Below are positions 16,379 to 57,072 of a stretch of DNA of 64,000 nucleotides, piece by piece. The DNA lies in the IMG/VR virus record IMGVR_UViG_3300044296_000239, one strand, 5' to 3'. The DNA is from a virus (taxonomy: Duplodnaviria; Heunggongvirae; Uroviricota; Caudoviricetes). The notes under the pieces were generated by a model. It searched no databases. It was not told where the DNA came from and worked only from the letters and a program-made list of their open reading frames with translations. The position numbers were made by a program, and so were the translations under genes. Numbering within the stretch: position 1 is the stretch's first letter; every line of letters begins with the position of its first letter.

Positions 16379-16401
16379 GGGAGCTTGCGCTCCCTTTTTT
16401 T
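16379..16401 (+). terminator. rho-independent terminator, probably bidirectional
   Basis: GGGAGC-ttgc-GCTCCC followed by T7; near-identical to the element at 38579-38601. Confidence 0.7.
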
Positions 16402-17187: not shown

Positions 17188-17189
17188 CC

Positions 17190-17334: not shown

Positions 17335-17335
17335 T

Positions 17336-17476
17336 CTGTTCACCCCATCCTTAACACACCGGATAGCTAAGCCCGGGGAGAGTAAGCCTACTATGCAGAT
17401 GATTACTCCCAGCAGACACATATACATCCGTGCCTCGATCATGTCTGTCACTGCGTTGAATAAGTTCTTAAACATA
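17336..17476 (-). CDS. small membrane protein (about 47 aa)
   Basis: MFKNLFNAVTDMIEARMYMCLLGVIICIVGLL...; RBS GGAGAGG; ATGA-coupled to the downstream ORF. Confidence 0.4.
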
Positions 17477-17489
17477 AATCCTCTCCAGA

Positions 17490-18416: not shown

Positions 18417-18457
18417 ATATTTCCTTAAGTGTGTGTGTTTTTTCAATCTATGGGTAG

Positions 18458-18485
18458 ATAATACCACAGTGGGTGGGTTTGTACA
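18458..18485 (-). promoter_or_regulatory. sigma70-like early promoter (T4 early type)
   Basis: minus strand: -35 TGTACA, 17-bp spacer, extended -10 TGTGGTATTAT; upstream of the ATPase gene. Confidence 0.5.
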
Positions 18486-18633
18486 TAGGCCCTTGCGAAA
18501 TAAAAAAAAGCTAATGGCATCATAGGCTTACAGAGCTCCCATACTCTACCGTTTTAGTAGACTATTACTCCCGGGTACCATTTTCGCGTGCCTCAGTTGC
18601 TACCTACGAAGTTCCTATGATAATCATTATCAT

Positions 18634-18927
18634 TTACCATGATGCCTTGGGGCCTTCCTCTGCCTGTGGTGTGGATGGGTCGGTGGCCTTTTGTTTCTGT
18701 TCTTTGACTGGCGTCTCAATGGATACCTTTGTTTCTGTGTCTGTATGCTTGACCGAGAATAGGATTCCTGATATATCAAACAATGATGAGATGAACCATA
18801 TCGCTATGGCCAGATCGATCGCGTGTCTTGCGAACCAGTGGATTACGTTGTTCATGATACCTTTCCAAGTGCTACTAACACAGACGTCACTACACATAGT
18901 AAGACCAGTGTGGTGATAGCTACCCAA
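18634..18927 (-). CDS. hypothetical membrane protein (start uncertain)
   Basis: 97-aa ORF; hydrophobic segment; C-terminal tail DPSTPQAEEGPKASW. Confidence 0.35.
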   Translation of the reverse strand: MGSYHHTGLTMCSDVCVSSTWKGIMNNVIHWFARHAIDLAIAIWFISSLFDISGILFSVKHTDTETKVSIETPVKEQKQKATDPSTPQAEEGPKASW

Positions 18928-19602
18928 TCTATCTTAGGATTTGATGTATCACGATATCGATAGTAACAATCAAAGTCTGGATCATACTTAAACTTTCCAT
19001 GCGGTGTGTCTATATACTCATTATATGGATCTTTATTCATGTGTCCCCCTACGTGTAAGGTACTTATAGAAGAAGTTACTGATCGGTCCATATACGTGGG
19101 CAAAACCAATCCAAATACGAAGGTACGGCAAGATGAAGCCGATGCCTGTCCTCGAGGGTGATAACTCCACGTCAACGGAAAGGGATACATGACTCAGAGT
19201 CCATACATGAAAGATGAGCCAATGAAAGCTTGCATCCCATGAATTCCATTCATCTCGAGCTCGATACGTGAAGCGTGGCACGAGCGGACACAAGTCGTTA
19301 CACCACAGCTGATGCAATGGATAGTGTTCCCACCAATTGAGTTCACGATAACACTCATTCATCTTGTTCATCCTTATCTTGCGGTAACATGTCACGGAAT
19401 ACGGTGACAGCATTGATTAGTTGGTTGCAACCTTCCCGATCCATCGTGAACTCACTGTATCCCATATTGAAGCTAACTCGATTGGTGTCTGTATAACCAA
19501 GTCGATAGAACGTGTGTGCTGGCTTTTCCTTCTTTTCTGGTGGGCTCACCTCTGCCACAGCCACGTCCTCTACTTTTTTCTTTGCCTTCAAAAAGTCTAA
19601 TA

Positions 19603-20100
19603 TCATAGTAAGCCTTCCTCTGTCTGTGGTGGTGCCGATGGGGTGGCATCACTATAACGATACACATACTCGGTCTTTGGTGTGTAGGGAAAATCTACGT
19701 AGACACGAGACTCTCGACACGTGTAGTGCGACTTATATGGATCTTCCTTCGTGCCGCTCCATTCCCAAAATACCTTACCATTGATGTCATATGCTCGATC
19801 GCTGCCATAGTCCTTGAACACATGCGATGCTCTCATGTTTTGGTAGTTGTGTCCGGTATCACGCCACTCCCAATCCTCACCAGTCAATGGCGTGATGGGC
19901 TCGAAGGATGCGATCTTCTTAAACAATGATATCGCATACGGCGCGGTGCTACCGCTGTGTCCTTCCTCTGCAAACACCTCGATCATCTTCATCACGTGCT
20001 TACAGATCATCTCTTGCATCTCATCATTAAACTTGCCATGCTCATCGACCCAACCCGCGGCACGAAACTCTGTCAATGCATGTCTCTCAAAATTATTCAT
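19603..20100 (-). CDS. hypothetical protein
   Basis: 165-aa ORF; C-terminal Pro-rich acidic tail encoded by a repeat shared with the ORF ending at 18634. Confidence 0.55.
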   Translation of the reverse strand: MNNFERHALTEFRAAGWVDEHGKFNDEMQEMICKHVMKMIEVFAEEGHSGSTAPYAISLFKKIASFEPITPLTGEDWEWRDTGHNYQNMRASHVFKDYGSDRAYDINGKVFWEWSGTKEDPYKSHYTCRESRVYVDFPYTPKTEYVYRYSDATPSAPPQTEEGLL

Positions 20101-28240: not shown

Positions 28241-28270
28241 ATTATACCACATCCACACTCGATTGTAAAC
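28241..28270 (-). promoter_or_regulatory. sigma70-like early promoter upstream of gene 32
   Basis: minus: GTTTACA-N17-TGTGGTATAAT. Confidence 0.55.
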
Positions 28271-28862
28271 AATCTTTGAGTGCTTCTTTGACTTTTTCGT
28301 TATTCACCGTTATAAATGGATTATACTTCTTGATCTTCTTCGAGAGTTCGGGCCACATGATGGGATCCGTAATCTGTTTGTCGAACTTCGGCATGAATCC
28401 AATATATCGATTCAATACAATAAAAACCTCTAATGGTATCTCGTCTTGAAGTAACATCTTGACGAGTTTAGGATGTTGTCCATCCTCTACCACAAATAGA
28501 CTCTTAAAGTCATTCGTCGATACAATCTTATCTATACAAGTTTTGAAGCGATATGTGAAGGATTCTTGCAAAGATTTAAAAGCTTTGTAAGTCTCATCCG
28601 CACGGTCTTCATTCAAATCACCAATCCACTTGGTGCCATGATGTGCAAAATTACATGCATAGAAAGTTTTAAGCTCATCGAGTCCATACTTCTTTACTAC
28701 CTTTGCAAAGAAAAATTTATCTCGACGAGCGAAAAATGATTTTGCGTTTACACTCGTCTTACCGTTATATTTAAAGTAATCATAAGTGTTTGATTCAAAG
28801 TGAAGCTTACAACCGATATAAATCTTGTATGCATCAAATGGATCAGTCGAACGTAAGCTCAT
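28242..28862 (-). CDS. 59: helicase loader gp59
   Basis: FFARRDKFFFAKVVKKY and KWIGDL match T4 gp59 (YQKRRDKYFFQKLSEKY, AWIGDI); immediately upstream of gene 32, as in T4. Confidence 0.75.
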   Translation of the reverse strand: MSLRSTDPFDAYKIYIGCKLHFESNTYDYFKYNGKTSVNAKSFFARRDKFFFAKVVKKYGLDELKTFYACNFAHHGTKWIGDLNEDRADETYKAFKSLQESFTYRFKTCIDKIVSTNDFKSLFVVEDGQHPKLVKMLLQDEIPLEVFIVLNRYIGFMPKFDKQITDPIMWPELSKKIKKYNPFITVNNEKVKEALKDCLQSSVDVV

Positions 28863-29079
28863 TCTTCTTTTTCAAATAACCTAAATTCATCCCTTCAGCT
28901 TCAAGCTTTGCTTTAATGGGATTACTCAATAACTTCACAATGTCCTCAGGATCGATCATACGCTCTTTGCAGATATCAATTACTGCATCGAGGTATGTTC
29001 CTCGATCCTTAGTCACTCGCTCTTGAATTAGATTCGAGAACGACTTCTTTGTGAACATTCCGTCTGGTTGTTCTGACAT
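28843..29079 (-). CDS. late-transcription coactivator gp33-like (tentative)
   Basis: 78 aa; the C-terminal pattern KERMIDPEDIVKLLSNPI...KKNELTFD loosely resembles gp33; consistent with T4 order 33-59-32. Confidence 0.4.
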   Translation of the reverse strand: MSEQPDGMFTKKSFSNLIQERVTKDRGTYLDAVIDICKERMIDPEDIVKLLSNPIKAKLEAEGMNLGYLKKKNELTFD

Positions 29080-39739: not shown

Positions 39740-40405
39740 TTATGCTCCCATTACATGCAGAGCGTGTTGATAGTGGGCAATTCGATCTTCTAGACCGATG
39801 AATCCGCCATTAATCGCTTTTGTTAATCCTTTGATATCACCTGCATCTGCAAATTTATTTAGGTTATTATTTTCCCAGAACCAACAAGCAGATTGTGCGG
39901 CACCTTCAAACGTTTGTAGGTATTCTGCGGCTTCTTCTACTGGAATATCTAATGACGCAGCAAACCAAGAATAGTTTGATTTACCAGTCAATTGGATTAG
40001 ACCTCGACCACAGTAACGATATCCGTCACCTGTTTCAGGTCCACCGTTACCCATACGGTTTGCATAAACTAAGTTAGCAATTGCTTCTTGTTTATTTGGC
40101 TTAGAAGCATATTCATTTGCCATCTCATCTGTCGGGAAATACTTCGGAAAGATTTTACGAAGTGTTACAGCTTTATAATTTAAGTTTTCCTTAAGAACCA
40201 TAAACCCACCGGATTCATGTGCGCATTGCGCAATAAATGCAGCAATTCGCTGTGGTGTGTTTATCTCATATTCTGGTAGCAATTGTGCTAGTGCACGGTG
40301 CCAATGGTCAACGTATGGATTCTTTGGGAGAAGCTGTTTTAATTGTTCTAATGATAATTCCATCTTCACTCCAATATATGTTGAATAATTCATGTCATAT
40401 GACAT
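39740..40405 (-). CDS. GH19 family endolysin
   Basis: 221 aa; YRYCGRGLIQLTGKSNYSWF GH19 core. Confidence 0.75.
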   Translation of the reverse strand: MSYDMNYSTYIGVKMELSLEQLKQLLPKNPYVDHWHRALAQLLPEYEINTPQRIAAFIAQCAHESGGFMVLKENLNYKAVTLRKIFPKYFPTDEMANEYASKPNKQEAIANLVYANRMGNGGPETGDGYRYCGRGLIQLTGKSNYSWFAASLDIPVEEAAEYLQTFEGAAQSACWFWENNNLNKFADAGDIKGLTKAINGGFIGLEDRIAHYQHALHVMGA

Positions 40406-40836: not shown

Positions 40837-41289
40837 TTAGAATGAAACTTTCAAACCAGCAGAAACTACATTACCATCAAAGTTATTTACGCGAGATTGA
40901 ATCGCGCTTTGATAGCGATAATCTGCAGTCAATGCGACTGATTTAGTTAATGAATAGCTTGCGCCTACACCAACTGAGCCTTGCCAACCACTAGCAGTAG
41001 ATGTTGGATCAACAAATGCAACACCAACTTTAGGAGTAATAGTAACTCCAGCAACTGTTGCTACATCATAACCAGCAACTAAGCTGTAACGATTAGTGTC
41101 ATTAGAGTTTTGTGTATAGCGTTCAAATCCGCCAGTAACAGAAGTCTTACCAAACTTTTCGCCGAGTGTTACACCAAAACCATTTTTATCTGGATTTTGT
41201 GAATAATCACGTTGAGCTGTAAGACCAACTTCTACTGCTTGTGCAGAACCTGCTACTAACAATGCTAAAATAGCTAATTTAACTTTCAT
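40837..41289 (-). CDS. outer-membrane beta-barrel protein (OmpX/Ail/Lom-like 8-strand type)
   Basis: 150 aa; signal MKVKLAILALLVAGSAQA; alternating hydrophobic beta-strands with Gly/Tyr girdles; C-terminal beta-signal ending in Phe (GLKVSF). Confidence 0.6.
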   Translation of the reverse strand: MKVKLAILALLVAGSAQAVEVGLTAQRDYSQNPDKNGFGVTLGEKFGKTSVTGGFERYTQNSNDTNRYSLVAGYDVATVAGVTITPKVGVAFVDPTSTASGWQGSVGVGASYSLTKSVALTADYRYQSAIQSRVNNFDGNVVSAGLKVSF

Positions 41290-41324
41290 TGAAATATTTC
41301 CTTTTCTAGTTTAAAGATCAAGAG

Positions 41325-41704
41325 TTGGTTTTTCTGTTACGAGGTAAACCAACTTAAACCCTAAGCAGCGTTTAGGCTGCTAATGCATAACTTTCGTCAT
41401 TTGCATTTACTTAGTTTGCTTCTTCGGCCAAGTTTCCTCAACCCTACGGGTTTCACATTCCCGTGTTGCCGTCTCTACTATCTACCTCTGTCGAAACCAT
41501 GGCATCCCCATCAAAAACATACTAAGGTGAAATGAACTTACTAAGTAGAGGTTCCGGCTTACCAATCCTGATCCCAACCTTTCGGTTTTGTAGAGATTTA
41601 AGTATGTTTTTGGTGGAGATGGGCGGAGTCGAACCGCCGTCCAGAAGTCCTTCGCTTTGAAGGGATTACAACAATTCCTCGTCCACTTTCTTCCAGCTAT
41701 TTTT
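41325..41704 (-). ncRNA. ssrA: circularly permuted (two-piece) tmRNA gene (ssrA); acceptor piece about 41611-41704, coding piece about 41325-41510
   Basis: coding piece: GGGGAUGCCAUGGUUUCGAC...GGGAAUGUGAAACCC (P2) ...GCA AAU GAC GAA AGU UAU GCA UUA GCA GCC UAA = ANDESYALAA*; upstream acceptor piece: T-arm GGCGG-UUCGACU-CCGCC then CAUCUCC-A-CCA, which pairs with GGGGAUG; candidate promoter TGGACA-N16-TATACT at 41711-41738. Confidence 0.7.
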
Positions 41705-41832
41705 GCCTTCAGTATAGTGTCCTATATATTTTTGTCCAGTCTCTTGATCTATTAATAACCATTTACCAGGACATTTTGTGCGAATAGTTAAAGTTTTAGC
41801 TTCATCTAATTCTTTAACACTTGTACCATCTT

Positions 41833-42435
41833 TTAATTTACGTTTTCTGTCCATGTTGCAACAATATATTTTTCATTAGAAATAGGAGGATTGCCGCGAT
41901 GAGTATGTGTATATCCAACAGGGAAAAGAACAATTCTTCCTTTTTTTGGTTTAATTCTTCTAGGATAATACAAAAATTCAGTTTCTCCACCCTCGTCAAC
42001 ATCATTAAGATAAATCAAAATGGCCAATATTCTATTACTATCTTCTTTTCCACTATTTTCATAATGCCATACATGATATCCACCACCTACCGATGTTCGT
42101 TGAAGTCTATGACCCCATAATCCATAGCCTCTAGACAATAAAACATCATATTTTTTATTATATTCATCAATACATTCACGAATGGCTTTATTCATGACAC
42201 CAGCTAAGAATGTATTAATGACTTTTACATCATCCAAATGTTCTTCATGTAAAAAATATGTTGTATCATCTTTGTGAACTTTTTCAATTCTTTCAGCTTC
42301 TTGTCTACTAAACGTACGTTTATTAGTTAATGCCCATTGATCCACATAATGGTAATGATTAATCAATTGTTCACAAATAGTTTCTGGCAAAATATCATCA
42401 AATACACCAATAAAATCTTGAATATCACTTTTCAT
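41833..42435 (-). CDS. 2OG-Fe(II) oxygenase, prolyl-4-hydroxylase-like
   Basis: 200 aa; GGETEF, HTHRG and C-terminal strand GRIVLFPVGYTHTH; paralogue of 48077..48622. Confidence 0.65.
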   Translation of the reverse strand: MKSDIQDFIGVFDDILPETICEQLINHYHYVDQWALTNKRTFSRQEAERIEKVHKDDTTYFLHEEHLDDVKVINTFLAGVMNKAIRECIDEYNKKYDVLLSRGYGLWGHRLQRTSVGGGYHVWHYENSGKEDSNRILAILIYLNDVDEGGETEFLYYPRRIKPKKGRIVLFPVGYTHTHRGNPPISNEKYIVATWTENVN

Positions 42436-43034
42436 TTTAATTTGTCTCTCATTTCTTCATATAATTCTGTTCGCTTAGCTGCATTGATAACTCCACCGGT
42501 GATTCGCTTAGTCATACCGATCATATCTTCAGCATCAGCATAAGCATTTAAATCTTTAATCATCCACACCCAACATGCTGAATGTACAGCGCCTTGTGGT
42601 GTGATGATATAATCTAATACATCTTCTATGCCAAAACCTGCATGTTCTGCAAATTTTCTATATGAATCTTTTCCAGTGATATGTAATAAGCCTCGTCCTT
42701 TATAGCGAGAACCATCACCAGATTCTTCACTACCATTTCCAAATCTATACGCATATATTCTATTTGCGATAGAATTTTCTTTATGCATATATGCTTCAGC
42801 AATCACTTGATTATTAAAGTGAGCAGGAAACAATATCATTAAATTGTTTCTGCTATAATTTAGATTTTCTTCAACGCACCTGAACTCTAACGACTCATAT
42901 GATGCTTGTGAAACAAATGCCGCCACACGCTTAAGCGTATTAATCTTATACTTATCAAAGAATAGCTTGAATGCCTCTATCCAAACTTTTTCTTCGATTA
43001 CTGATTCAAGCTTATCATAATATAATTGTAACAT
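42432..43034 (-). CDS. GH19 family lysozyme (third GH19 paralogue)
   Basis: 200 aa; SRYKGRGLLHITGKDSYRKF. Confidence 0.7.
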   Translation of the reverse strand: MLQLYYDKLESVIEEKVWIEAFKLFFDKYKINTLKRVAAFVSQASYESLEFRCVEENLNYSRNNLMILFPAHFNNQVIAEAYMHKENSIANRIYAYRFGNGSEESGDGSRYKGRGLLHITGKDSYRKFAEHAGFGIEDVLDYIITPQGAVHSACWVWMIKDLNAYADAEDMIGMTKRITGGVINAAKRTELYEEMRDKLK

Positions 43035-43446: not shown

Positions 43447-43773
43447 TTAACCTAACTTCTCTATACCGAACTTTGAAATACCAAAACGAGTTGGACCAGG
43501 ATTTGGATAAAAACCAGTTAGCACATTAGAAGAACCTGTAATTGGATGACCACACGATGCTAAATCGCCCGTCCTACATATGGCTATACCACAAGCAAAC
43601 ACGTCAGCAGCGGCTTCTTCCATAACTGGTGCATCATGTGGTGATCTACCATGACCTGCAATAGCAGCGCCTTTTACAACAATTGGTGATCCATTTACAA
43701 ACACAGTAGGAGCTAGATTGCCGACTACTACTCCGCCCGCTTTGTCAACACCTACTCTAGAAATTCCTGGCAT
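43447..43773 (-). CDS. PAAR-repeat spike-tip protein (gp5.4-like)
   Basis: 108 aa; VFVNGSPIVVKGAAIAGHG...ICRTGDLASCGHPITGSSNVLTG matches the PAAR pattern. Confidence 0.55.
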   Translation of the reverse strand: MPGISRVGVDKAGGVVVGNLAPTVFVNGSPIVVKGAAIAGHGRSPHDAPVMEEAAADVFACGIAICRTGDLASCGHPITGSSNVLTGFYPNPGPTRFGISKFGIEKLG

Positions 43774-48076: not shown

Positions 48077-48622
48077 TTACGTATAATGTAAGTATGTACC
48101 AGCAATGTATTTTGCATTAGAGACTGGTGGAAGACCAGCATGTGGGTGAGTCCACATTGGGGGAAACATTAGCAAACGTCCAGTTTTTGGCTGTACTCGC
48201 ATATCATGATCGATACCGATGAAGGCAGTTTCACCGCCTTCTGCTAAATTATTGAGATAGAAAAACATGACAAGGAATCGACGAGCAGATGCATGATCTC
48301 CTACGTCAACGTGTTCCCTAAACTCATCTTTACCACCGACTTCATACTTCTTCATGCGAACTTGTTCAAAGCCGATTTGTTTAGGGAAAAATTTAACGTT
48401 ATGTTGTTCGCAATACTTATCAACGAATGGCTGTACTCGCGAAAGGATATAATTTTGATCTTCAGCAAATAATGGAATTTGACCGAAATTTATTTCATTG
48501 AAGTTCTTGTATGAATCTTCTCTACGAATCCACGCAGTTTTATTGCGTTCAAATTTATCAATAAGACCTTTGCAAAAGTCTTCTTCTAAAACATTATCAA
48601 ATACAGAGATATAATTCTTCAT
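48077..48622 (-). CDS. 2OG-Fe(II) oxygenase (P4H-like), array member 1
   Basis: 181 aa; EHVDVGDH (HxD), GGETAF, HPHAG. Confidence 0.7.
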   Translation of the reverse strand: MKNYISVFDNVLEEDFCKGLIDKFERNKTAWIRREDSYKNFNEINFGQIPLFAEDQNYILSRVQPFVDKYCEQHNVKFFPKQIGFEQVRMKKYEVGGKDEFREHVDVGDHASARRFLVMFFYLNNLAEGGETAFIGIDHDMRVQPKTGRLLMFPPMWTHPHAGLPPVSNAKYIAGTYLHYT

Positions 48623-49272
48623 TATTCTACCACAAAATTAATATTAAGCAAATACCTAGTTTTAAAATTCATTGGATTACTAGGAGCGTGATAACGAAGT
48701 CCATCGAAACATACAATTCTTCCTTGTTGAGGAGTAACTCGTGCAGCTACTGTCGTATGAATATCAGAACCAGGTATATTGTGTTTTGGTTCGAATCGTT
48801 CATTCATAATGATAGTATCACCATCGCTGTCATTAATATAATAAATTAAAGTCTTGTGTTGGATCTCTGTATCTGTATGAATACCATTACAGTTATTTTC
48901 AGAAAACCCGTGTAACGGAATCTGTTTATTAATTTTCATCCGCAAGATTTTTTTTACATTTAATCCGGCTTTTTCAGCAAACAAATCTAGTATGAATAAA
49001 CCCATGTAATAAAAACATTCTGGTTGATGAATCACTTCTGGATCATCTGGAGATCTTGCACCACCAGTATAAGCTAATTTTACCAAGCATGGAGATTCTT
49101 TAATTTCTAAACCTTCGCATGAATAATTGCGTGCTTTCCAATAATCTCCAGCTGAGACTTCTTCATTAAAATCAAGCCAATGTAAATTTCTATCTGTTAC
49201 AGAGTCTAGAATTCTTCTTTGTAAATTTTTAGGAATAAGATCATCATATACGACAATATCATCATTATTCAT
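48622..49272 (-). CDS. 2OG-Fe(II) oxygenase-like paralogue (subfamily with NDSDGDT motif), array member 2
   Basis: 216 aa; HTDTE...H, YYINDSDGDTI, GRIVCFDGLRYH. Confidence 0.6.
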   Translation of the reverse strand: MNNDDIVVYDDLIPKNLQRRILDSVTDRNLHWLDFNEEVSAGDYWKARNYSCEGLEIKESPCLVKLAYTGGARSPDDPEVIHQPECFYYMGLFILDLFAEKAGLNVKKILRMKINKQIPLHGFSENNCNGIHTDTEIQHKTLIYYINDSDGDTIIMNERFEPKHNIPGSDIHTTVAARVTPQQGRIVCFDGLRYHAPSNPMNFKTRYLLNINFVVE

Positions 49273-49934
49273 TGTGTACCTCCTAAATTCATATTAAGTG
49301 TAAGTCTTCGTTTAGCTATTGTTGGAGTGCTGCTACTATGATAGCGCAACCCATTAAATTTAATACAACGCCCAGCTTTTGGCTCAATTCTAGCAGCTAT
49401 AGATAATTCTATTTCTTTATTATTATGAGATGGTTCAAACATTTCGTTATAAAGAATTGTATCTCCATCACTATCATTAATATAATATAATAAAACATCA
49501 TGTGGATATTCCGCATCAACGTGTGGAAAATTAATATTGTTTATTGGCGCATTATTAAGCTGATTAATTTTCATTCTATATAAACGATTAAAGTTCCAAT
49601 TAGTTTTTTGTGCAAACATTTCACATATAAACAATGAATGTTGTAAAGCCCAATATGGATCATACCACTCTTTATCATGAAAAACAGAATGTGTCAATCC
49701 TGGATTATCAATCCACTCAATTTCATCAGTTGACTTATATGTTCTAGGAATTTCAGAACGTGTAATATTTTCTAAATAAAACCAATTAAAATCTTTATCT
49801 AAAGCTTTTTGTGCATATCGTTCAACAAAACTCTTTGGCAAAAAATCATCTAATACAATTATATCATTTGGTAAATTCATAGTTTGCCGCAATTGATATG
49901 CGTTCTCCATGTGGATTTTTAAATGGCCAAACAA
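49269..49934 (-). CDS. 2OG-Fe(II) oxygenase-like paralogue, array member 3
   Basis: 221 aa; HVDAEYPH, YYINDSDGDTI, GRCIKFNGLRYH. Confidence 0.6.
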   Translation of the reverse strand: MFGHLKIHMENAYQLRQTMNLPNDIIVLDDFLPKSFVERYAQKALDKDFNWFYLENITRSEIPRTYKSTDEIEWIDNPGLTHSVFHDKEWYDPYWALQHSLFICEMFAQKTNWNFNRLYRMKINQLNNAPINNINFPHVDAEYPHDVLLYYINDSDGDTILYNEMFEPSHNNKEIELSIAARIEPKAGRCIKFNGLRYHSSSTPTIAKRRLTLNMNLGGTQ

Positions 49935-50514
49935 AGTGTTGACATTTTGGTGGAAAAATAAAAATATCTCCTACTTCTGGTCTATGGGCAAATTTATCAT
50001 TAGAAAAATCCATGTATTCACCATATTTCCATGCAACCATTCCACCATGACATGCAATGTCTTCTTCAGTTGGTGCTGGAATTTGAATATACATTACGAA
50101 TGACACATCCCCCGGGTGATGATGTAATGCATGCATATCTCCAGGTTTTTGTATATTTGCCCAAAGCGATGATTCTCCATCTTTATCTTTATAAGGACGC
50201 ATCGTTTCAACTTGTTGTATACATTTTTCAGATAATTCTTCTGACATACGTATTGATCCACGTAATTCTAAAAAATAATTTAGAATATGACGTTTAACTT
50301 CACTGTCAAATAACTTAAATTCTTCAGGAGTAAAATCCATCATTGGATTTGTACCATTAGTAAACTGTCCTGCTTTAGAACTTCTATTTAATGATGGATC
50401 TTGACGTACACGTTGAATAGCATTATAACACATCTCTAAAACATTAGCATCAATACTTGCTTTATAAATTGCTGGACCAAATGGATATATTACTGCGGGC
50501 ATGGTTCCTCCCAA
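49864..50514 (-). CDS. 2OG-Fe(II) oxygenase-like paralogue (HHH subfamily), array member 4
   Basis: 216 aa; LHHHPGD, GDIFIFPPKCQH. Confidence 0.55.
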   Translation of the reverse strand: MGGTMPAVIYPFGPAIYKASIDANVLEMCYNAIQRVRQDPSLNRSSKAGQFTNGTNPMMDFTPEEFKLFDSEVKRHILNYFLELRGSIRMSEELSEKCIQQVETMRPYKDKDGESSLWANIQKPGDMHALHHHPGDVSFVMYIQIPAPTEEDIACHGGMVAWKYGEYMDFSNDKFAHRPEVGDIFIFPPKCQHFVWPFKNPHGERISIAANYEFTK

Positions 50515-51143
50515 TCAATACAAAACGAAACAGTCATTCTTAGTTCATCAGTCTTATTGGTTTTGATTTCGTGATCTAAATAACCTGGCCAAATTAACAT
50601 ATCACCAGTTTCAGGCATAAATGAATAATAGTTATTTAAAAGCCAGCGCTGACTCATTTCTTGATTTTTATAATACGCAAATGCATTTGGATTAGTAAAT
50701 TCAATTGATCCACCGACCATAGATTTTGGTACGTTCACATAGTATGTTCCAGCTAATAAAAATCCTGCATGATGGTGTCTAGCTTGATATCCATGTTTAG
50801 GATTAATATTAAACCACATCTTTGAAATTTTTAAACGAAGATCAGATTGAACTTCATTGCATCGTAAATCGCATTTTAAAACGGATATACGATTAGCTAC
50901 ATATTCACTAGAATTTTGTAATATTTTATTGACTAAAGGATAAAATTCTGGTAGTGTATGCAATTCACTAGTAAAATCATTATAAAAATGAGTAGTAAAT
51001 CCAGTATTATAAAAATTACCATCATTAACAGGAGATTTTGAATACAAATTCAAAATCCATTCTTTTATTGTTGTATGTGTATCTTCTGACAGTTTATCTC
51101 TAGAATATAATATTTCTGTAGAAAATGGAGTGATAATTTTCAT
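50490..51143 (-). CDS. 2OG-Fe(II) oxygenase-like paralogue (HHH subfamily), array member 5
   Basis: 217 aa; ARHHHAGF, GDMLIWPGYLDH. Confidence 0.55.
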   Translation of the reverse strand: MKIITPFSTEILYSRDKLSEDTHTTIKEWILNLYSKSPVNDGNFYNTGFTTHFYNDFTSELHTLPEFYPLVNKILQNSSEYVANRISVLKCDLRCNEVQSDLRLKISKMWFNINPKHGYQARHHHAGFLLAGTYYVNVPKSMVGGSIEFTNPNAFAYYKNQEMSQRWLLNNYYSFMPETGDMLIWPGYLDHEIKTNKTDELRMTVSFCIDWEEPCPQ

Positions 51144-51745
51144 ACTTTAGAAGCACCCAGCAAATTATAATTAATAATACATCTAGAGCTTTTAGTCGGT
51201 TGTGTACTGCTGTGATACGTATGACCATCAAAAATAACAACTCTTCCTTGTTTGGGTTCAACTTTCATCTTTACTGTCAATTTATCTAAACTTATATCAT
51301 GTTCTTTAATGTCGCTTAAAGTTTCATTATATAATACAGTTGGTCCATCGCTATCATTTACATAATATAATACGACTAAATGTGGAATTTCATAATCAAT
51401 GTGCGGATGATTTAATAGTTTATTATTTGGATCAGTTGGAAAATGTAAAAATGATCTTGCTCGCATCAGTTCATCGAATACAATACCTTGTTTATCGCAT
51501 ACTTCCAATAAAAGAGGATAAATCATATGATGCCATGGACTAAGAGGATTTGGGCTCCTAACATTATCATAATACAAATGAGATAAACCAGGTTTTGGAA
51601 TAAAACCAATTGGCATTTTACCCATTGGATATGTAATATCAGGCTGATAATACCATTCAATCTTTGCACTTAAAAGACTATCACGAATGTGTTCTTGATA
51701 AAGTTTCGAAATTACGTTGTCTAACACAATTGGTTCATCAAACAT
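51140..51745 (-). CDS. 2OG-Fe(II) oxygenase-like paralogue, array member 6
   Basis: 201 aa; HIDYEIPH, YYVNDSDGPTV, GRVVIFDGHTYH. Confidence 0.6.
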   Translation of the reverse strand: MFDEPIVLDNVISKLYQEHIRDSLLSAKIEWYYQPDITYPMGKMPIGFIPKPGLSHLYYDNVRSPNPLSPWHHMIYPLLLEVCDKQGIVFDELMRARSFLHFPTDPNNKLLNHPHIDYEIPHLVVLYYVNDSDGPTVLYNETLSDIKEHDISLDKLTVKMKVEPKQGRVVIFDGHTYHSSTQPTKSSRCIINYNLLGASKV

Positions 51746-52337
51746 TTTGTATAAAGTTTCCTAATAAATTAAAATTTATGATTGCTCTTGGATTATAAAT
51801 TGGTTGTTCTGCAGTGTGATAATTATCGCCATTAAATATAACACATCTTCCTTTTTTTGGAGTGATTCGTATTAATTCTTTAAAATCTTTTGCTTCTAAA
51901 TTAAAATCTACTGCATCAGTGCGTTTGTGATCTACTAGTATCGTATCACCGTCAGAGTCGACTATGTAATATAATACAACTAAATGCGGAAATGGTTGAT
52001 CAACGTGTAGAGCATCTACATCTTTAGACCTAAAATGTTCAGAGAGAGGAAGTTGTAAAAATGATCTAGCTTTTATTACTAAATCGATTTTAAAATTGAT
52101 ATGCTTACACGCTTCATAAGCAATAGGACTTACCATATGAAAATACTGTTCATCGTGGTATTTTTGAAAATCTGTAAATAGATGAGAAAATGCTGGTGTC
52201 TTGCGATGATTTGCACCGTTAGCATACGTAATATCATTTACAAAAAACCAAGGAGCTTTTTGTACAAATTCTTCTATTAAGACATTTTGATATGAAATGT
52301 CTATAACATCGTCAATAATTATTGGAGTATCAATCAT
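51738..52337 (-). CDS. 2OG-Fe(II) oxygenase-like paralogue, array member 7
   Basis: 199 aa; HVDQPFPH, YYIVDSDGDTI, GRCVIFNGDNYH. Confidence 0.6.
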   Translation of the reverse strand: MIDTPIIIDDVIDISYQNVLIEEFVQKAPWFFVNDITYANGANHRKTPAFSHLFTDFQKYHDEQYFHMVSPIAYEACKHINFKIDLVIKARSFLQLPLSEHFRSKDVDALHVDQPFPHLVVLYYIVDSDGDTILVDHKRTDAVDFNLEAKDFKELIRITPKKGRCVIFNGDNYHTAEQPIYNPRAIINFNLLGNFIQNV

Positions 52338-52384: not shown

Positions 52385-52942
52385 TTACATCAAAACCCGC
52401 GAATGTTTTGGTACACCGCTTAATAAGTATTCCATTTGATCAGCAAGAATATTTCTATTCATGAGAATCATGTGTTCGTAGTGGTTTGGTTCATATGGAA
52501 TGTATAGTAATTCCAACCTAGCTTCTTTAAGAGTTCTGTCACTCTTCACAGAGTTACATTTCTTACAAGCTGTTACTACGTTCATCCAAATATTCTCACC
52601 GCCACGTGACACAGGAGTGATATGATCACGGGAAAGATTATTAGAAGTGAAATGATTACCACAGTAGGCGCAGACATGTCGATCTCTCGCGAATAGTGTT
52701 TTGTTACTCAAAACAACACGTCCAAATTTAGCTGGGTTAAATCCTTCACCGCCTTTAATGGCAATGATAGATGGAGATTCTAAATATGATTCAGTTCCAT
52801 CATTTTGCAAACCACCGCGGAATTTAGCGACTGGCTCACCAAGTGTCCATGCCACTTGATTTTTCGCATGATACATAATTGCTTGTTCGAAATTTAACCA
52901 TTGACGTGGTATACCACCCACATCAAGCGCTAGCACATTCAT
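52385..52942 (-). CDS. HNH endonuclease
   Basis: 185 aa; CAYCG...DHITPVSRGGENIWMNVVTACKKCN (HNH with zinc-binding Cys pairs). Confidence 0.75.
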   Translation of the reverse strand: MNVLALDVGGIPRQWLNFEQAIMYHAKNQVAWTLGEPVAKFRGGLQNDGTESYLESPSIIAIKGGEGFNPAKFGRVVLSNKTLFARDRHVCAYCGNHFTSNNLSRDHITPVSRGGENIWMNVVTACKKCNSVKSDRTLKEARLELLYIPYEPNHYEHMILMNRNILADQMEYLLSGVPKHSRVLM

Positions 52943-52975: not shown

Positions 52976-53051
52976 TGGTACCCAGTGTTGGACTCGAACC
53001 AACATCGCTCTCCTTGTAAGGGAGACGTATCACCTCTCTACGCAACTGGGC
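52976..53051 (-). tRNA. tRNA-Val(UAC)
   Basis: manual fold: acceptor GCCCAGU/ACUGGGU, anticodon loop CUUACAA, T-loop UUCGAGU, CCA encoded. Confidence 0.7.
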
Positions 53052-53174
53052 ATAATTCTTTGGGGTGTCATACGAGTATCGATCTCGTACCACCAGTTTC
53101 ACAGACTAGTATGCAGGCCACTACACTAATGACACCATAGATCAAAATACACTCTTTGAATACACTTTGATTTA

Positions 53175-53249
53175 TGGTAGGGGCACAGAGAATCGAACTC
53201 TGATTTACTGGTTAAAAGCCAGTTACTTTAGCCGTTAAGTTATACCCCC
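53175..53249 (-). tRNA. tRNA-Lys(UUU)
   Basis: acceptor GGGGGUA/UGCCCCU, anticodon loop CUUUUAA, T-loop UUCGAUU, CCA encoded. Confidence 0.7.
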
Positions 53250-53277
53250 ATCATCTTTCGAGGTTTATGTTTTCGTT

Positions 53278-53469
53278 TCATCGTCTTTTCTTCCATTCAT
53301 AATCGATACCATCTGGACATACTCCGTTTTTCACAGAATCTATACCAAACTTACCGCATACTTCCATGTTGTTTCCTTTGATTGTTACAAATGTACCCAA
53401 TTCTTTTGCGTACTCTAATGCTTCATCAAGTGTTTTAAATTGTTTTTCGTTTATACTATACATTATCAT
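53278..53469 (-). CDS. small hypothetical protein inside the tRNA array
   Basis: 63-aa ORF between tRNA-Lys and tRNA-Gly. Confidence 0.4.
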   Translation of the reverse strand: MIMYSINEKQFKTLDEALEYAKELGTFVTIKGNNMEVCGKFGIDSVKNGVCPDGIDYEWKKRR

Positions 53470-53470
53470 T

Positions 53471-53543
53471 TGGAGCGGGAGACGGGATTCGAACCCGCTC
53501 CGTCAGCTTGGAAGGCTGAGTCCTCTCCCAGGAGAACTCCCGC
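53471..53543 (-). tRNA. tRNA-Gly(UCC)
   Basis: acceptor GCGGGAG/CUCCCGC, anticodon loop CUUCCAA, T-loop UUCGAAU, CCA encoded. Confidence 0.7.
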
Positions 53544-53807
53544 AAATTAGATGGAGATAAGAATTCAATTCAGACCGCGATAAGTCGCTCAGCAACCTGC
53601 AACTAGCAATACGCAACATGCAGGCCACAAAGTCTATATTCCCATTAGCAATAAGCAGCGACTTAATGTCAGTATAATGGGAGCAACTAACTATGGGTTG
53701 GCCGTTGTTAGTCGGATTAGCTTTCAAGGCTAACCAATTCCAGTAAAAGTGGAATTGTTTGTGCGCTTATCTAATGCAGATCCTCTTATCCTTCTTACCT
53801 CCGAAAA

Positions 53808-54392
53808 TTAAACTAAACCTTCCTCTTGAAGAGTCAATTTAGTTGGATCACTCAATTGAATGAGTGTGTTAACATTTAGCTGCAATAGCTTATCAGCTAG
53901 ACCTTGACGCTCACGCTTCAACATCTTTACCGTTGCCTTTGCAGCTACGATATCTGTCTCAGATACCACAGTAGTGTCAACGTTGTTGTAACGTTCACCA
54001 TATAGTGCACTACGCGCATCTACTGGAGTTTGCTTCATCTTAACGATGCGCGCATTGATCTCGCTAACGTCTTTACGAGGCTGTGTATTTACAACTACGT
54101 TATTGATTGCGATCTGTGCATCAATTAATTCAACATCAGCCAATACATCGCTAATGCCGCTTTCAACGTTTGCACGTCCCACTGCAGCTCGAATCTGGTA
54201 CAAAGCTTTATTCAAAGCTTCTTTACGCTCAAGCGCTTGTTTAAATTCTAATGCACCTTTACTCAAGGTACCTTCTACATCTGCAGTGAATTCATTCACT
54301 ACGATATCTGTTTTTGTGTTTACGCCGCCAATTGCACGACGAAGTTCACTTTGGATTGCATTTGCTTTACGAAGATTAATTTGCATATTCAT
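53808..54392 (-). CDS. hypothetical protein
   Basis: start trimmed to MNMQINLRK (RBS AAGGAAA); the ORF-track N-terminal extension would run through tRNA genes. Confidence 0.55.
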   Translation of the reverse strand: MNMQINLRKANAIQSELRRAIGGVNTKTDIVVNEFTADVEGTLSKGALEFKQALERKEALNKALYQIRAAVGRANVESGISDVLADVELIDAQIAINNVVVNTQPRKDVSEINARIVKMKQTPVDARSALYGERYNNVDTTVVSETDIVAAKATVKMLKRERQGLADKLLQLNVNTLIQLSDPTKLTLQEEGLV

Positions 54393-54413
54393 TTCCTTTG
54401 CATTGTATAGTAT

Positions 54414-54443
54414 ATTATACCATAATTTTAAATTGTTGTAAAC
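54414..54443 (-). promoter_or_regulatory. sigma70-like early promoter
   Basis: minus: GTTTACA-N17-TATGGTATAAT; directly downstream of a tRNA 3' end. Confidence 0.5.
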
Positions 54444-54538
54444 TGGTACTCCCGACCGGATTCGAACCGATATCATTCCCTCATCTAGAGACATCGCCAA
54501 GGTATAAGCTTGGAGTTTTACCATTAAACTACAGGAGC
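54444..54538 (-). tRNA. atypical long tRNA-like gene (95 nt; anticodon loop CUUAUAC gives UAU; about 25-nt variable region)
   Basis: acceptor GCUCCUG/CGGGAGU, D-arm GUUU-AAUGGUA-AAAC, T-arm AUCGG-UUCGAAU-CCGGU, CCA encoded; identity unresolved. Confidence 0.45.
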
Positions 54539-54545
54539 ATTGATC

Positions 54546-54621
54546 TGGCACCCCGTAAAGGAATCGAACCTCTACCTCAACGTTCGTAGCGTTGTATGAT
54601 CATCCATTTCACCAACGGGGC
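54546..54621 (-). tRNA. tRNA-Arg(ACG)
   Basis: acceptor GCCCCGU/ACGGGGU, anticodon loop CUACGAA, T-loop UUCGAUU, CCA encoded. Confidence 0.7.
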
Positions 54622-54626
54622 ATTGT

Positions 54627-54702
54627 TGGTCCCGACACTTGGTTACGCACCAAGCTCTCTGGCTTTTCAGACCAGCGCTTTCACTAGATTAGCTTTATCG
54701 GG
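54627..54702 (-). tRNA. tRNA-Phe(GAA)
   Basis: acceptor CCCGAUA/UGUCGGG, anticodon loop CUGAAAA, non-canonical T-loop UGCGUAA, CCA encoded. Confidence 0.6.
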
Positions 54703-54711
54703 AAAATTAAT

Positions 54712-54788
54712 TGGTGCCCTAGGAGAGACTCGAACTCTCAGAACCTGGTTTCTAAGACCAGTACGTATACCAATTCCGTCACCAGGGC
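54712..54788 (-). tRNA. class-I-architecture tRNA with Leu anticodon UAG (identity uncertain)
   Basis: acceptor GCCCUGG/CUAGGGC, anticodon arm CUGGU-CUUAGAA-ACCAG, short variable GUUCU, T-loop UUCGAGU, CCA encoded. Confidence 0.55.
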
Positions 54789-54795
54789 ATTGTTG

Positions 54796-55437
54796 TTATT
54801 TCGATTTCATCAACTCATTGACAAAATCTAATAGTAATTGTTGTTTGGGTTTATACTTACCCTTCATCCATGTATATGAATCATACCAAAATTGTTCTGC
54901 TTCAGGATGACAACCTATTAGACCAACATTGTCTTGTATAATTGCCATCGGATCACCGTTCATGTATCTTGCATATGTTCTAAAATTTTCTTCACTTCCT
55001 GTAACTGCAAATCCATCGTAAAAGAACATTCTTTCCCGTCTACCGTTCCAGTCAACTTCCAAATCTTTTGCGTGCGGTCTTCTTGTATCTGTTCCTGGGC
55101 GAGTGATATACTGAGTTGTATCACAAGCATTAAGTATGCCAAAATAATGAGACCCTGCCCAATAACCTCCCATGCATATACCAATGTAGGGTCGACCGGA
55201 CCTGACAAATTTCCGTATATGATCTCTATTATTGACAAACAAGTGACGGAAAGAATCGCTATCACCGAACCCGCCCCCAAAACATATTGCATCAACCGTT
55301 TCAAAGAATCCATTCTCTACTTCCTGCTTAGTGAATAGTTTAAAATCATAATGAGAAGATAACGCAGCCATTATACCATTATTTGACTGCGTTGAACAAT
55401 ATGGTTGTGCAACAAATAAACCTATTTTTGGTTTCAC
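54796..55437 (-). CDS. class-I glutamine amidotransferase-like / BPL_N-like protein
   Basis: 213 aa; GGGFGDSDSF and GICMGGYW (nucleophile-elbow-like Cys). Confidence 0.4.
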   Translation of the reverse strand: MKPKIGLFVAQPYCSTQSNNGIMAALSSHYDFKLFTKQEVENGFFETVDAICFGGGFGDSDSFRHLFVNNRDHIRKFVRSGRPYIGICMGGYWAGSHYFGILNACDTTQYITRPGTDTRRPHAKDLEVDWNGRRERMFFYDGFAVTGSEENFRTYARYMNGDPMAIIQDNVGLIGCHPEAEQFWYDSYTWMKGKYKPKQQLLLDFVNELMKSK

Positions 55438-55451
55438 ATTTTTCCAATATT

Positions 55452-55525
55452 TGGAGCGGGTAGCGAGACTCGAACTCGCAAATAAACCTTGGCAAGGTTT
55501 CAGGTTACCTTTACATCATACCCGC
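55452..55525 (-). tRNA. tRNA-Gly(GCC)
   Basis: acceptor GCGGGUA/UACCCGC, anticodon arm AAACC-UUGCCAA-GGUUU, T-loop UUCGAGU, CCA encoded. Confidence 0.65.
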
Positions 55526-55755
55526 ATGTTTTTTAGATTGAACCTTTGATTTTAATGTCTGGAATAATTGCAGTAATTTTTACTTCTTTTTTATCCTCGG
55601 ACTCTAAATCATAATACTCATCTTTATTTATTGCTTCATCAAATTTTTCAGCTTCAGTTTTCTTTTTCTTTCCAAAGATAGCATCCCAACGATTATCATA
55701 TTCTTCTTGAGAAACACTAAATGGTCTTGGTTTACTTCCTTTTCCACCATCACTC

Positions 55756-55923
55756 ATTTTTTACCTCTGCGCTTTTCAACTTGTTTTTGTTTAATACGTC
55801 CGTCTAAGGCTTGAACTGTGTTTAACAATTTTTGTTTCCATTCCTCTTCACTGAGTGAATGCCAACCGACACACTTAGACGTCAACGATCTACCGCATGT
55901 ACACTTTTTATCTTCAGTCATAA
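55756..55923 (-). CDS. small Cys-containing protein (about 55 aa)
   Basis: MTEDKKCTCGRSLTSKCVGW...; below the ORF-track cutoff. Confidence 0.3.
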
Positions 55924-56564
55924 TAATTCCATTTTATGGATCTTTTTGAGACCTTTGTTTTTAACATAACATTAAAACTTAGCGAAATACGTTCTCCTAT
56001 AAAATTTCCTGGTTGTGTTCCGTGTTGTAACCAACTTGGAAATATAAAAATTTTACCCTGAGTTGGTTTAAATTTATATATTTCAAAATTATTAAATCCA
56101 GGCTTATAGTCAAAAACATACGTATTTGATATTGGTCCTCGAGGATCAGTAAAAAACAAATCTCCTGAACCTTCTGGTGCATTTAAATAAAATACACCCG
56201 AAAACATACTGTTTGGATGATGATGTATTTCATGCTGACTTTTATCAACGTGTGAATTTCCCCACATACAATTAATATGAAGATCTTCGTGTAAAATACC
56301 CATATCATCAACTGCAGCTGCAACTCTACTTAAGAATATATCTCTTATAGGAAACCACTCTTCTCTTAAGTGTAAATCATCTGGACTTACCCAATTTCCC
56401 AATCCAGAATAAACTCCACTATCTTCATTTTCACGAATATCTATAAATTTTTGTGTATATTCATTTAATATTGTTGTATCAGCTAAATGATATTCCCAAA
56501 TTCTAGTTGGAAATAAAGTATGTCTAATTGATTCATCAAATTGTGGAATCATATAATCTCTCAT
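55914..56564 (-). CDS. 2OG-Fe(II) oxygenase-like paralogue (HHH subfamily)
   Basis: start trimmed to MRDYMIPQF; EIHHHPNS, GKIFIFPSWLQH; the untrimmed ORF would read through tRNA-Pro. Confidence 0.55.
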   Translation of the reverse strand: MRDYMIPQFDESIRHTLFPTRIWEYHLADTTILNEYTQKFIDIRENEDSGVYSGLGNWVSPDDLHLREEWFPIRDIFLSRVAAAVDDMGILHEDLHINCMWGNSHVDKSQHEIHHHPNSMFSGVFYLNAPEGSGDLFFTDPRGPISNTYVFDYKPGFNNFEIYKFKPTQGKIFIFPSWLQHGTQPGNFIGERISLSFNVMLKTKVSKRSIKWNYYD

Positions 56565-56566
56565 GT

Positions 56567-56644
56567 TGGTCGGAGATACAGGATTCGAACCTGTGACCCT
56601 CTGCTCCCAAAGCAGATGCGCTAGCCAGACTGCGCTAATCTCCG
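56567..56644 (-). tRNA. tRNA-Pro(UGG)
   Basis: acceptor CGGAGAU/AUCUCCG, anticodon loop UUUGGGA, T-loop UUCGAAU, CCA encoded. Confidence 0.7.
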
Positions 56645-56649
56645 ATAAG

Positions 56650-56723
56650 TGGTGCCCCATCACAGAATCGAACTGCAAGCCTCGGATTACAAAACCGATG
56701 TTTTACCATTAAACTAATAGGGC
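56650..56723 (-). tRNA. tRNA-Thr(UGU)
   Basis: acceptor GCCCUAU/AUGGGGC, anticodon loop UUUGUAA, T-loop UUCGAUU, CCA encoded. Confidence 0.6.
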
Positions 56724-56739
56724 AAATAACTATATATCT

Positions 56740-56814
56740 TGGTGGTAATGGTTGGATTCGAACCAACGTTAGCTTCCGTATGAAGGAAGTGCAAGGCCTC
56801 TTTGCTACATTACC
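56740..56814 (-). tRNA. tRNA-Met(CAU), elongator type (or Ile-lysidine)
   Basis: acceptor GGUAAUG/CAUUACC, anticodon arm CUUCC-UUCAUAC-GGAAG, T-loop UUCGAAU, CCA encoded. Confidence 0.65.
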
Positions 56815-56818
56815 AATA

Positions 56819-56906
56819 TGGTGGGTGTTGATGGTAACGCTCCACGAACTCAACTTCCCACCTCTTAGAGTAACGGATTTACAGTCCGCCGGCGGGGGCA
56901 ACACCC
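56819..56906 (-). tRNA. tRNA-Tyr(GUA) candidate, class II, atypical T-arm
   Basis: acceptor GGGUGUU/AACACCC plus A-CCA; anticodon arm GCGGA-CUGUAAA-UCCGU; long variable region; T-arm does not fold canonically by eye. Confidence 0.4.
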
Positions 56907-56912
56907 TTAATA

Positions 56913-56990
56913 TGGCTGTGCATCTAGGGATCGAACCTAGCTCATTCCTGATTAACAGTCAGGCGCATACACCTTGCTTGCTCATGCACA
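56913..56990 (-). tRNA. tRNA-Asn(GUU)
   Basis: acceptor UGUGCAU/AUGCACA, anticodon arm CCUGA-CUGUUAA-UCAGG, T-loop UUCGAUC, CCA encoded. Confidence 0.65.
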
Positions 56991-56997
56991 ATAAAAT

Positions 56998-57068
56998 TGG
57001 TTGCGGGGGAAAGATTCGAACTTTCTAGGAAAAGCTTATGAGACTCTCCTCTACCCTGACTCCCCGCG
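56998..57068 (-). tRNA. tRNA-Met(CAU), initiator-like (C1xA72 mismatch), short
   Basis: acceptor CGCGGGG/CCCCGCA, anticodon loop CUCAUAA, T-arm GAAAG-UUCGAAU-CUUUC, CCA encoded; D-arm unclear. Confidence 0.45.
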
Positions 57069-57072
57069 ATTT

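Follow-up and report, generated by a model that had tools for sequence, protein, structure and literature searches.

A complete circularly permuted tmRNA gene of the beta-proteobacterial type in an uncultured T4-like phage

Does the phage genome represented by IMG/VR record IMGVR_UViG_3300044296_000239 encode a two-piece transfer-messenger RNA (tmRNA) of its own, and, if so, is the gene a working one? A preliminary description of this 64,000-nt stretch of DNA (hereafter, the window), made from its letters, had proposed a circularly permuted tmRNA gene (ssrA) on the minus strand, with the tag peptide ANDESYALAA. Our analysis confirms a complete circularly permuted two-piece ssrA of the beta-proteobacterial type at this locus, in the genome of an uncultured, lytic T4-like myophage. 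Along the minus strand, the acceptor piece comes first, followed by a 101-nt spacer and then the coding piece (Table 1). Below we describe the gene and the selection acting on it, its distribution and genomic setting, and what it probably does for the phage.

Both checks proposed for the locus in the preliminary description, a permuted-tmRNA search with ARAGORN and a covariance-model search against Rfam, were run and are positive. ARAGORN calls a permuted tmRNA (marked in its output as tmRNA with an asterisk) at 41281-41703 on the minus strand, and the tag that it reports is exactly the one proposed. In Rfam, RF04321 (tmRNA_permuted) aligns over model positions 1-213 of 213 with 131.7 bits (E = 1.5e-25, gathering threshold 47), and RF01850 (beta_tmRNA) aligns over its full length, model positions 1-331, with 122 bits (E = 1.2e-36, gathering threshold 84). 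RF01850 is the top model of its clan at this locus, with weaker same-clan matches suppressed. The match is far above chance expectation.

All the sequence elements listed at the outset are located on the minus strand, which we read over 41200-41850, with two corrections. The 5' acceptor strand GGGGAUG is present but occupies 41509-41503, one base off from the 41504-41510 first given, and the sequence GGGAAUGUGAAACCC, first labelled as the P2 helix, corresponds in the Rfam beta model to the hairpin that follows P2. The stem around the stop codon, proposed as GCAGC/GCUGC, extends by one further pair to AGCAGC/GCUGCU. The tRNA-Ala-like domain has a 7-bp acceptor stem, the G3.U70 alanine determinant, a T-arm, the discriminator A, and an encoded CCA, and the tag frame consists of the Ala resume codon GCA at the head of 10 codons, an ALAA degron, and a stop codon. 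The hairpin at the 3' end of the coding piece, which is not followed by a canonical U-run, is likely a structure that protects the 3' end.

The two-piece fold, including both helices that join the pieces, is maintained by compensatory changes. We aligned 64 non-redundant phage homologs (< 85% identity) with their spacers removed and folded the alignment. Standard pairs fill 93.4% of the cells, versus 39-51% in controls with the 3' partners shifted by 1-3 columns, and 23 of the 45 pairs show changes on both sides, versus 12-16 in the shifted controls. Covariation is seen in the outer inter-piece helix (UA/GC/GU/AU, GC/AU, UA/CG), in the inner one (UA/CG/AU, GC/AU/CG), in one T-stem pair (CG in 47, GC in 17), in one acceptor pair (UA in 25, CG in 21, GC in 16), and, strongly, in the stem of the 3' hairpin. 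G3.U70 is found in 64/64 homologs, and no part of the gene is better conserved than the tRNA-like domain.

The tag is conserved as well. Of 100 tags of ten residues in related contigs, every one begins with A-N and ends with A-A; F or Y stands at position 6 in 99 and L at position 8 in 86, while positions 4-5 vary freely. Such a pattern is what would be expected if the degron works in the SspB/ClpX manner known from E. coli. Because compensatory pairing and tag conservation are found together, the gene is not a decaying passenger.

The spacer between the two pieces behaves differently from the pieces themselves. Its length ranges from 19 to 160 nt among the viral homologs (median ~70), its sequence is unrelated in most relatives, even close ones, and its overall fold in the window is no better than that of shuffled sequences (z = -0.17). 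The stem that closes it, on the other hand, is kept by pairing rather than by sequence: duplexes of each strand with its own partner average -12.7 kcal/mol, versus -6.0 kcal/mol with mismatched partners (p = 5e-25). Neither the spacer nor the 3' region matches any known RNA in Rfam, including the glutamine riboswitch, even at E <= 10. Together with the unpaired UGAU leader that precedes G1, these features fit a disposable hairpin that would extend the acceptor helix and then be cut by tRNA-processing enzymes. Such maturation of a permuted precursor is the model stated in PMC11915505, by analogy with which we propose the cleavage here.

Comparison with individual relatives suggests modular recombination inside the tmRNA gene. 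In two distant viral loci, L202 (12058-12156) and L183 (2835-2933), the spacer is 92-93% identical to that of the window, and identity over the spacer and the acceptor/D-loop block next to it is 92-100%, whereas flanking proteins are ~34% identical and the P2 strands and the tag differ. Set against L202, the two P2 strands of the window are 62% and 53% identical, the spacer 92%, and the D-loop block 100%. The reverse pattern appears with L005 and L063, in which the P2 strands are 94-96% identical and the spacer 38-55%.

The assignment of the window to a T4-like phage, also made in the preliminary description, is supported by its gene content and by its nearest relatives. It encodes baseplate wedge/hub proteins like gp5, gp6, and gp7, as well as homologs of gp32, gp33, and gp59, and its nearest relatives by tblastn are Methylophilales phage Melnitz (gp6 40%, gp32 55%), then Pelagibacter phages HTVC008M and Mosig, then cyanomyophages. 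No megablast match to the window was found among 50,697 deposited phage records, and our IMG/VR scan did not return the window itself. Using an exact match to a protein neighbouring the tmRNA, we located near-identical contigs: a 36-kb Joint Genome Institute (JGI) contig is 99.5% identical and yields the same tmRNA call, and Logan contigs from several sequencing runs are 99.9% identical. As sequence of 99.5-99.9% identity occurs in independent assemblies, this is a real and recurrent, uncultured T4-like phage. The samples that contain it include JGI 3300051163 and SRR5675749/50. In the JGI contig, the tmRNA falls in a gap between called protein genes.

The gene is common among related viruses. 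Four gapped patterns requiring the permuted order, run over IMG/VR, returned 172 viral stretches, and all our IMG/VR scans taken together gave 166 permuted tmRNA calls by ARAGORN in viral loci, with ANDEKFALAA (23), ANDERFALAA (10), and ANDESYALAA (8) as the commonest tags. At least one protein is held in common with the window (E <= 1e-8) in 139/176 viral loci. One of these relatives, L186, is collinear with the window over ~52.3-40.5 kb at ~59% protein identity and carries its tmRNA in the same slot, after a 2-oxoglutarate (2OG)-Fe(II) oxygenase gene and a conserved 62-aa open reading frame (ORF). In Melnitz and most relatives, ssrA has the PD-(D/E)XK exonuclease gene on one side and gp33-gp59-gp32 on the other. 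In the window, the two anchors (63469-63957 and 28242-29079, respectively) lie 34 kb apart, with a tRNA array, an array of 2OG-oxygenase paralogs, and the tmRNA between them, the last ~12 kb into the 34-kb expansion. These sequence comparisons show inheritance of the gene across a large T4-like clade, in a plastic region between the exonuclease gene and gp33-gp59-gp32.

Beyond this clade, the acceptor piece alone matches Pseudomonas phages of the Samunavirus group and Stenotrophomonas phage BUCTxx99. Ten of 11 relatives tested score 104-163 bits on RF01850; BUCTxx99 matches only RF04321. The preliminary description held that a permuted tmRNA would constrain the host lineage, a claim that fails: the beta-type permuted gene is also found in phages of Pseudomonas aeruginosa and Stenotrophomonas, hosts that use a one-piece tmRNA. 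Melnitz, for its part, carries an alpha-type gene yet infects a Methylophilales host (PMC9004378). As the phage form does not track the host form, the form of the tmRNA gene is unfit for host prediction.

We also considered the exact 32-nt T-arm/acceptor sequence as a pointer to a bacterial donor and rejected it. This sequence is present in 23 bacterial genomes (Thiomicrospirales, Deinococcus, Bacteroidales), and all 12 of the bacterial loci that we scanned with ARAGORN are one-piece. Since unrelated bacteria with one-piece genes have it, the 32-mer is uninformative about origin; it is either convergent or ultra-conserved. Within IMG/VR it occurs in seven contigs, six of them permuted. The exception is L007 (IMGVR_UViG_3300034341_000552), in which the same 32-nt 3' domain belongs to a one-piece tmRNA at 10337-10646 with the tag ANDETYALAA, ~350 nt from the end of the locus. 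L007 has two proteins in common with the window and may represent either a phage with a non-permuted form or a junction with host sequence.

What would such a gene do? Quite probably, to judge from its sequence and from better-known systems, it encodes a working tmRNA that would draw on host RNase P, alanyl-tRNA synthetase (AlaRS), SmpB, and EF-Tu for ribosome rescue and ANDESYALAA tagging. The steps that we envisage follow the established two-piece tmRNA model as set out in PMC11915505, with the Caulobacter work cited there. Transcription of a single precursor would either begin at a weak sigma-70-like site or extend into the gene from those upstream. Host RNase P would cleave 5' of G1, behind the conserved UGAU leader, and the 3' end would be trimmed to CCA; with the spacer discarded, a ~63-nt acceptor RNA would remain paired with a coding RNA of ~190 nt. 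After charging with alanine by host AlaRS, the RNA would be delivered by host SmpB and EF-Tu to ribosomes stalled on broken mRNAs. The tag frame would be translated next, and the nascent chain, now ending in ANDESYALAA, would be directed to ClpXP-type proteases. For the phage, the benefit would be a free ribosome pool while host transcription is off and mRNAs are being degraded, which fits the presence of a 25-gene tRNA array 11 kb away.

Several observations weigh against this proposal and should be set beside it. No SmpB homolog was found in the 64-kb window with an approximate probe sequence; function would depend on compatibility with the host SmpB. The TGGACA-N16-TATACT element, put forward in the preliminary description as the promoter of the acceptor piece, is present and is a possible tmRNA promoter, but sites of this kind are not enriched in the region (5 versus 7.3 +/- 3.2 in shuffles), the element falls inside the upstream 62-aa ORF, and no such element is evident at the L186 locus. 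Two routes to the RNA are equally likely: read-through with later processing, or transcription from a promoter of its own. Our terminator scan detected no terminator-like site between the tmRNA and the next gene, which encodes an outer-membrane protein (OMP) beta-barrel, so no terminator marks the 3' end of the coding piece; the OMP gene is possibly co-transcribed with the precursor. As for the RNA itself, the terminal 3' (terminator) hairpin of RF01850 is unmatched, that region of the alignment being deleted and flagged non-canonical, and in the middle P2 segment one pair is non-canonical and the segment is replaced by the local hairpin CCUUC/GAAGG. The terminator hairpin is a peripheral element outside the RNA core.

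Four other explanations of the gene deserve consideration. The first, raised for Melnitz by Buchholz et al. (PMC9004378), is that the phage tmRNA reprograms the host by out-competing the host tmRNA and tagging stalled, mostly host, products, for example for early amino-acid recycling. Adaptor binding could be tuned through tag positions 4-5, which differ from one phage lineage to another between ends that do not change, and the permuted type is carried even by phages whose hosts use the one-piece form. We nonetheless regard this as improbable: the tag is a canonical AND..YALAA degron, nothing separates phage-directed from host-directed tagging, and there is no regulatory element such as the glutamine riboswitch of Melnitz.

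A second possibility is that the RNA acts as a decoy that binds host SmpB, AlaRS, or ribosomes and thereby inhibits host trans-translation. The tmRNA-like RNA of mycobacteriophage DS6A, which has no coding sequence, inhibits the endogenous tmRNA in E. coli (PMC11915505), and a tRNA-like domain that is conserved above the rest of the gene would suit such a role. A decoy, however, needs no tag frame, whereas the resume codon, frame, stop, and degron residues are conserved in > 100 homologs, and the helices that position the coding piece covary. We consider a decoy very unlikely.

Could the gene instead be a functionless passenger, a host ssrA captured by imprecise excision or a remnant of the attP type? 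Integration often occurs at tmRNA genes, and prophages contain ssrA fragments (PMC9004378). Here, however, the whole gene is present and not just a 3' part of it, it lies in a T4-like phage, and none of the subset of ORFs that we annotated encodes an integrase. The syntenic slot is retained at ~59% flanking protein identity, and all 12 scanned bacterial loci with the exact 32-nt 3' domain are one-piece, with none permuted. With tag conservation and, above all, the covariation, which largely refutes it, this explanation is extremely improbable. Finally, that the window is a bacterial chromosome bearing the cell's own ssrA has practically no probability: the beta-proteobacterial model is the best Rfam match and nothing further points that way, while T4-type baseplate genes and gp32, gp33, and gp59 homologs lie on the same contig, and the tRNA array, the 2OG-Fe(II) oxygenase array, and phage-only homologs surround the gene.

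Table 1. Coordinates of the tmRNA gene, its parts, and neighbouring features in the window
Feature	Position	Strand	Basis or remark
Acceptor piece, ~63 nt	41611-41673	minus	Rfam alignments, sequence, covariation
Outer inter-piece helix, UGUUGU with GCAACA	41673-41668 / 41469-41464	minus	part of P2; covaries
Local hairpin CCUUC-AAAGC-GAAGG	41663-41649	minus	within acceptor piece
Inner inter-piece helix, ACUUCUG with CAGAGGU	41648-41642 / 41490-41484	minus	part of P2; covaries
T-arm GGCGG-UUCGACU-CCGCC	41638-41622	minus	sequence; one T-stem pair covaries
Acceptor 3' strand CAUCUCC	41621-41615	minus	pairs with GGGGAUG
Discriminator A	41614	minus	sequence
Encoded CCA	41613-41611	minus	sequence
Intervening segment (spacer), 101 nt, presumed removed	41510-41610	minus	insertion in both Rfam models
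Spacer closing stem, AAAACAUACU with AGUAUGUUUU	41610-41601 / 41523-41514	minus	own-partner pairing
Unpaired UGAU leader directly 5' of G1	41513-41510	minus	each position conserved in at least 60/64
Coding piece, ~186-190 nt	41324-41509	minus	RF01850 and RF04321 alignments, ARAGORN, covariation
Acceptor 5' strand GGGGAUG	41509-41503	minus	7-bp stem; G3 opposite U (G3.U70)
D-loop-like CCAUGGUUUCGA	41502-41491	minus	coding piece
Hairpin CGGGAAUGUGAAACCCG	41463-41447	minus	coding piece
Hairpin GGUUGAG-GAAA-CUUGGCC	41443-41426	minus	coding piece
Tag frame GCA AAU GAC GAA AGU UAU GCA UUA GCA GCC UAA	41404-41372	minus	ANDESYALAA, then stop
Stop-codon hairpin AGCAGC/GCUGCU, UAA in loop	41381-41376 / 41369-41364	minus	sequence
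3' hairpin GUUGGUU...AACCAAC, conserved loop CCUCGUAACAGAA	41324-41353	minus	RF01850 hairpin, consensus loop CCUUGuuACcaAA
Sigma-70-like site TGGACA-N16-TATACT	41711-41738	minus	10/12 consensus match; ~38 nt upstream of first tmRNA helix
62-aa ORF upstream of tmRNA	41666-41854	minus	phrog_4098, E 1.5e-12
OMP beta-barrel gene with signal peptide, 150 aa, "opacity protein-like"	40837-41289	minus	Pfam PF13505, E 1.9e-7
First intrinsic-terminator-like site on the strand	40821-40805	minus	terminator scan; downstream of OMP gene
Eighth copy of the 2OG-oxygenase array, directly upstream of tmRNA	41833-42435	minus	paralogy
Tandem array of 7 paralogous ~200-aa genes	48077-52337	minus	5 match 2OG-Fe(II) oxygenase PF13640/PF13759
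HNH endonuclease gene	52385-52942	minus	between 2OG array and tRNAs
tRNA array, 24 ARAGORN tRNAs and 1 Rfam-only	52976-58863	minus	~11 kb from tmRNA

The genes around the tmRNA differ in how well they are kept. The last codons and stop TAA (41668-41666) of the upstream 62-aa ORF run into the 5' strand of the outer inter-piece helix, and a homolog with 58% identity occupies the same position in L186. The downstream OMP gene, which is missing at the corresponding place in L186, is reminiscent of the genes for outer-membrane and curli pores in Melnitz and the pelagimyophages. We considered it as a source of host inference and rejected it: among its 290 metagenomic homologs, those examined are mostly in phage contexts or bulk metagenome assemblies, and their contexts carry no host signal. 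Three of the 2OG-Fe(II) oxygenase matches in the tandem array are above the Pfam cutoff and two are weak, the other two genes being without a Pfam match; L186 carries the same array.

Some further features of the window are recorded here for completeness. In the tRNA array, the Rfam-only member (54630-54702, 48 bits) has, by eye, a GAA (Phe) anticodon and a non-canonical T-loop, UGCGUAA. The tRNA called as Ile(UAU), at 54444-54538 on the minus strand, is 95 nt long with an encoded CCA and has ~22 nt extra between the anticodon arm and the T-arm, a segment that could be an insert, an intron, or a long variable arm and would be unusual for an Ile tRNA. Two paralogs, at 39740-40405 and 42432-43034, flank the tmRNA and share a domain with the C-terminus of the protein encoded at 6406-7737, which resembles a tail-associated lysozyme or endolysin; one of the flanking paralogs has a weak match to the GH19/chitinase class. 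A PAAR protein is encoded at 43447-43773. The G+C content rises to 46% at 16001-20000, compared to 32-40% across the rest of the window, and this segment was possibly acquired recently.

The beta-type permuted gene is widespread in the uncultured T4-like clade and bears clear structural and coding selection. A more far-reaching account, which we put forward tentatively and think rather doubtful as a whole, would make beta-type ssrA an old, vertically inherited, yet recombining part of this large clade. It would have a precursor architecture of its own (the UGAU leader and the closing stem), the alpha and beta types would have replaced each other in situ at one locus (Melnitz versus the clade), and the tmRNA form would be independent of the host, even in hosts with one-piece genes. 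If that were true, the phage RNA would replace the host tmRNA after host shut-off, not merely supplement it.

The novelty claimed for the locus in the preliminary description was overstated. In 2022, Buchholz et al. found a tmRNA in 402 of 18,146 phage genomes, and ARAGORN classed 53 of these as permuted (PMC9004378); Table S1 of that study already names Pseudomonas phage SM1, Stenotrophomonas, Sphingobium, Streptomyces, and Caulobacter phages, and cyanophages. A 2025 tmRNA database holds 79 unique phage sequences. The gene is, besides, common among the IMG/VR relatives described above. What is new here is limited to this phage, the presence of the beta type in its T4-like clade, a clade without a deposited representative, the features of the precursor, and the mosaicism. 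For annotation, the locus is a reminder that a permuted tmRNA is easily missed, as in the Pseudomonas and Stenotrophomonas phage records that we examined and in the near-identical metagenome contig.

How does the gene compare with known systems? In Caulobacter crescentus, as Keiler, Shapiro, and Williams are said to have described in 2000, a permuted precursor is cut into two base-paired RNAs that tag proteins; that two-piece tmRNA is alpha-type and chromosomal, whereas the one in the window is beta-type and phage-borne. The closer bacterial counterpart is the beta type of RF01850 (Betaproteobacteria/Burkholderiales), which the window resembles in gene order, tRNA-like core, the two inter-piece helices, the hairpin after P2, an AND...ALAA-type tag, and a 3' hairpin with a CCUYGUAAC-AGAA-like loop. 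It differs from this model in being phage-borne and in its spacer (101 nt versus ~19 nt in the model consensus), in the missing terminal hairpin, in a middle P2 that takes the form of a local hairpin, and in an extra GAAA-capped hairpin at 41443-41426.

Among phages, the nearest system by genome is that of Melnitz and Mosig (PMC9004378), related marine T4-like myophages with a two-piece tmRNA and the same anchor genes as the window. In Melnitz, the tmRNA scores as alpha-type (106.7 bits on RF01849) and a glutamine riboswitch (52.8 bits on RF01739) comes after it, whereas in the window, with its beta-type gene, neither RF01849 nor RF01739 is matched even at E <= 10. Other counterparts are Pseudomonas phages SM1, UF_RH6, and PaMx31 (Samunavirus) and Stenotrophomonas phage BUCTxx99, in which the gene is permuted and the acceptor piece is ~80% identical to that of the window, including UGUAAUCCCUUCAAAG. 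UF_RH6 is beta-type like the window (RF01850 at 104 bits). These phages are, however, unrelated siphophages of ~93-109 kb, and their tags (ANDTSFDVRLAA, ANDDVYVVALAA) are longer. In the records that we searched with ARAGORN, the permuted tmRNAs are unannotated, at 1477-1897 in UF_RH6 (OQ383211.1) and at 1455-1780 in BUCTxx99 (OR529408.1); in UF_RH6, each end of the RNA gene is overlapped by an annotated hypothetical coding sequence (orf85 and orf84). The cluster C1 mycobacteriophages, like the window, have a tmRNA beside a large tRNA array, but theirs is one-piece, with actinobacterial hosts and tags; for phage Lethe, PMC13097058 gives 34 tRNAs and 1 tmRNA. The window adds a well-supported case of a large phage with a big tRNA set that also carries a ribosome-rescue RNA.

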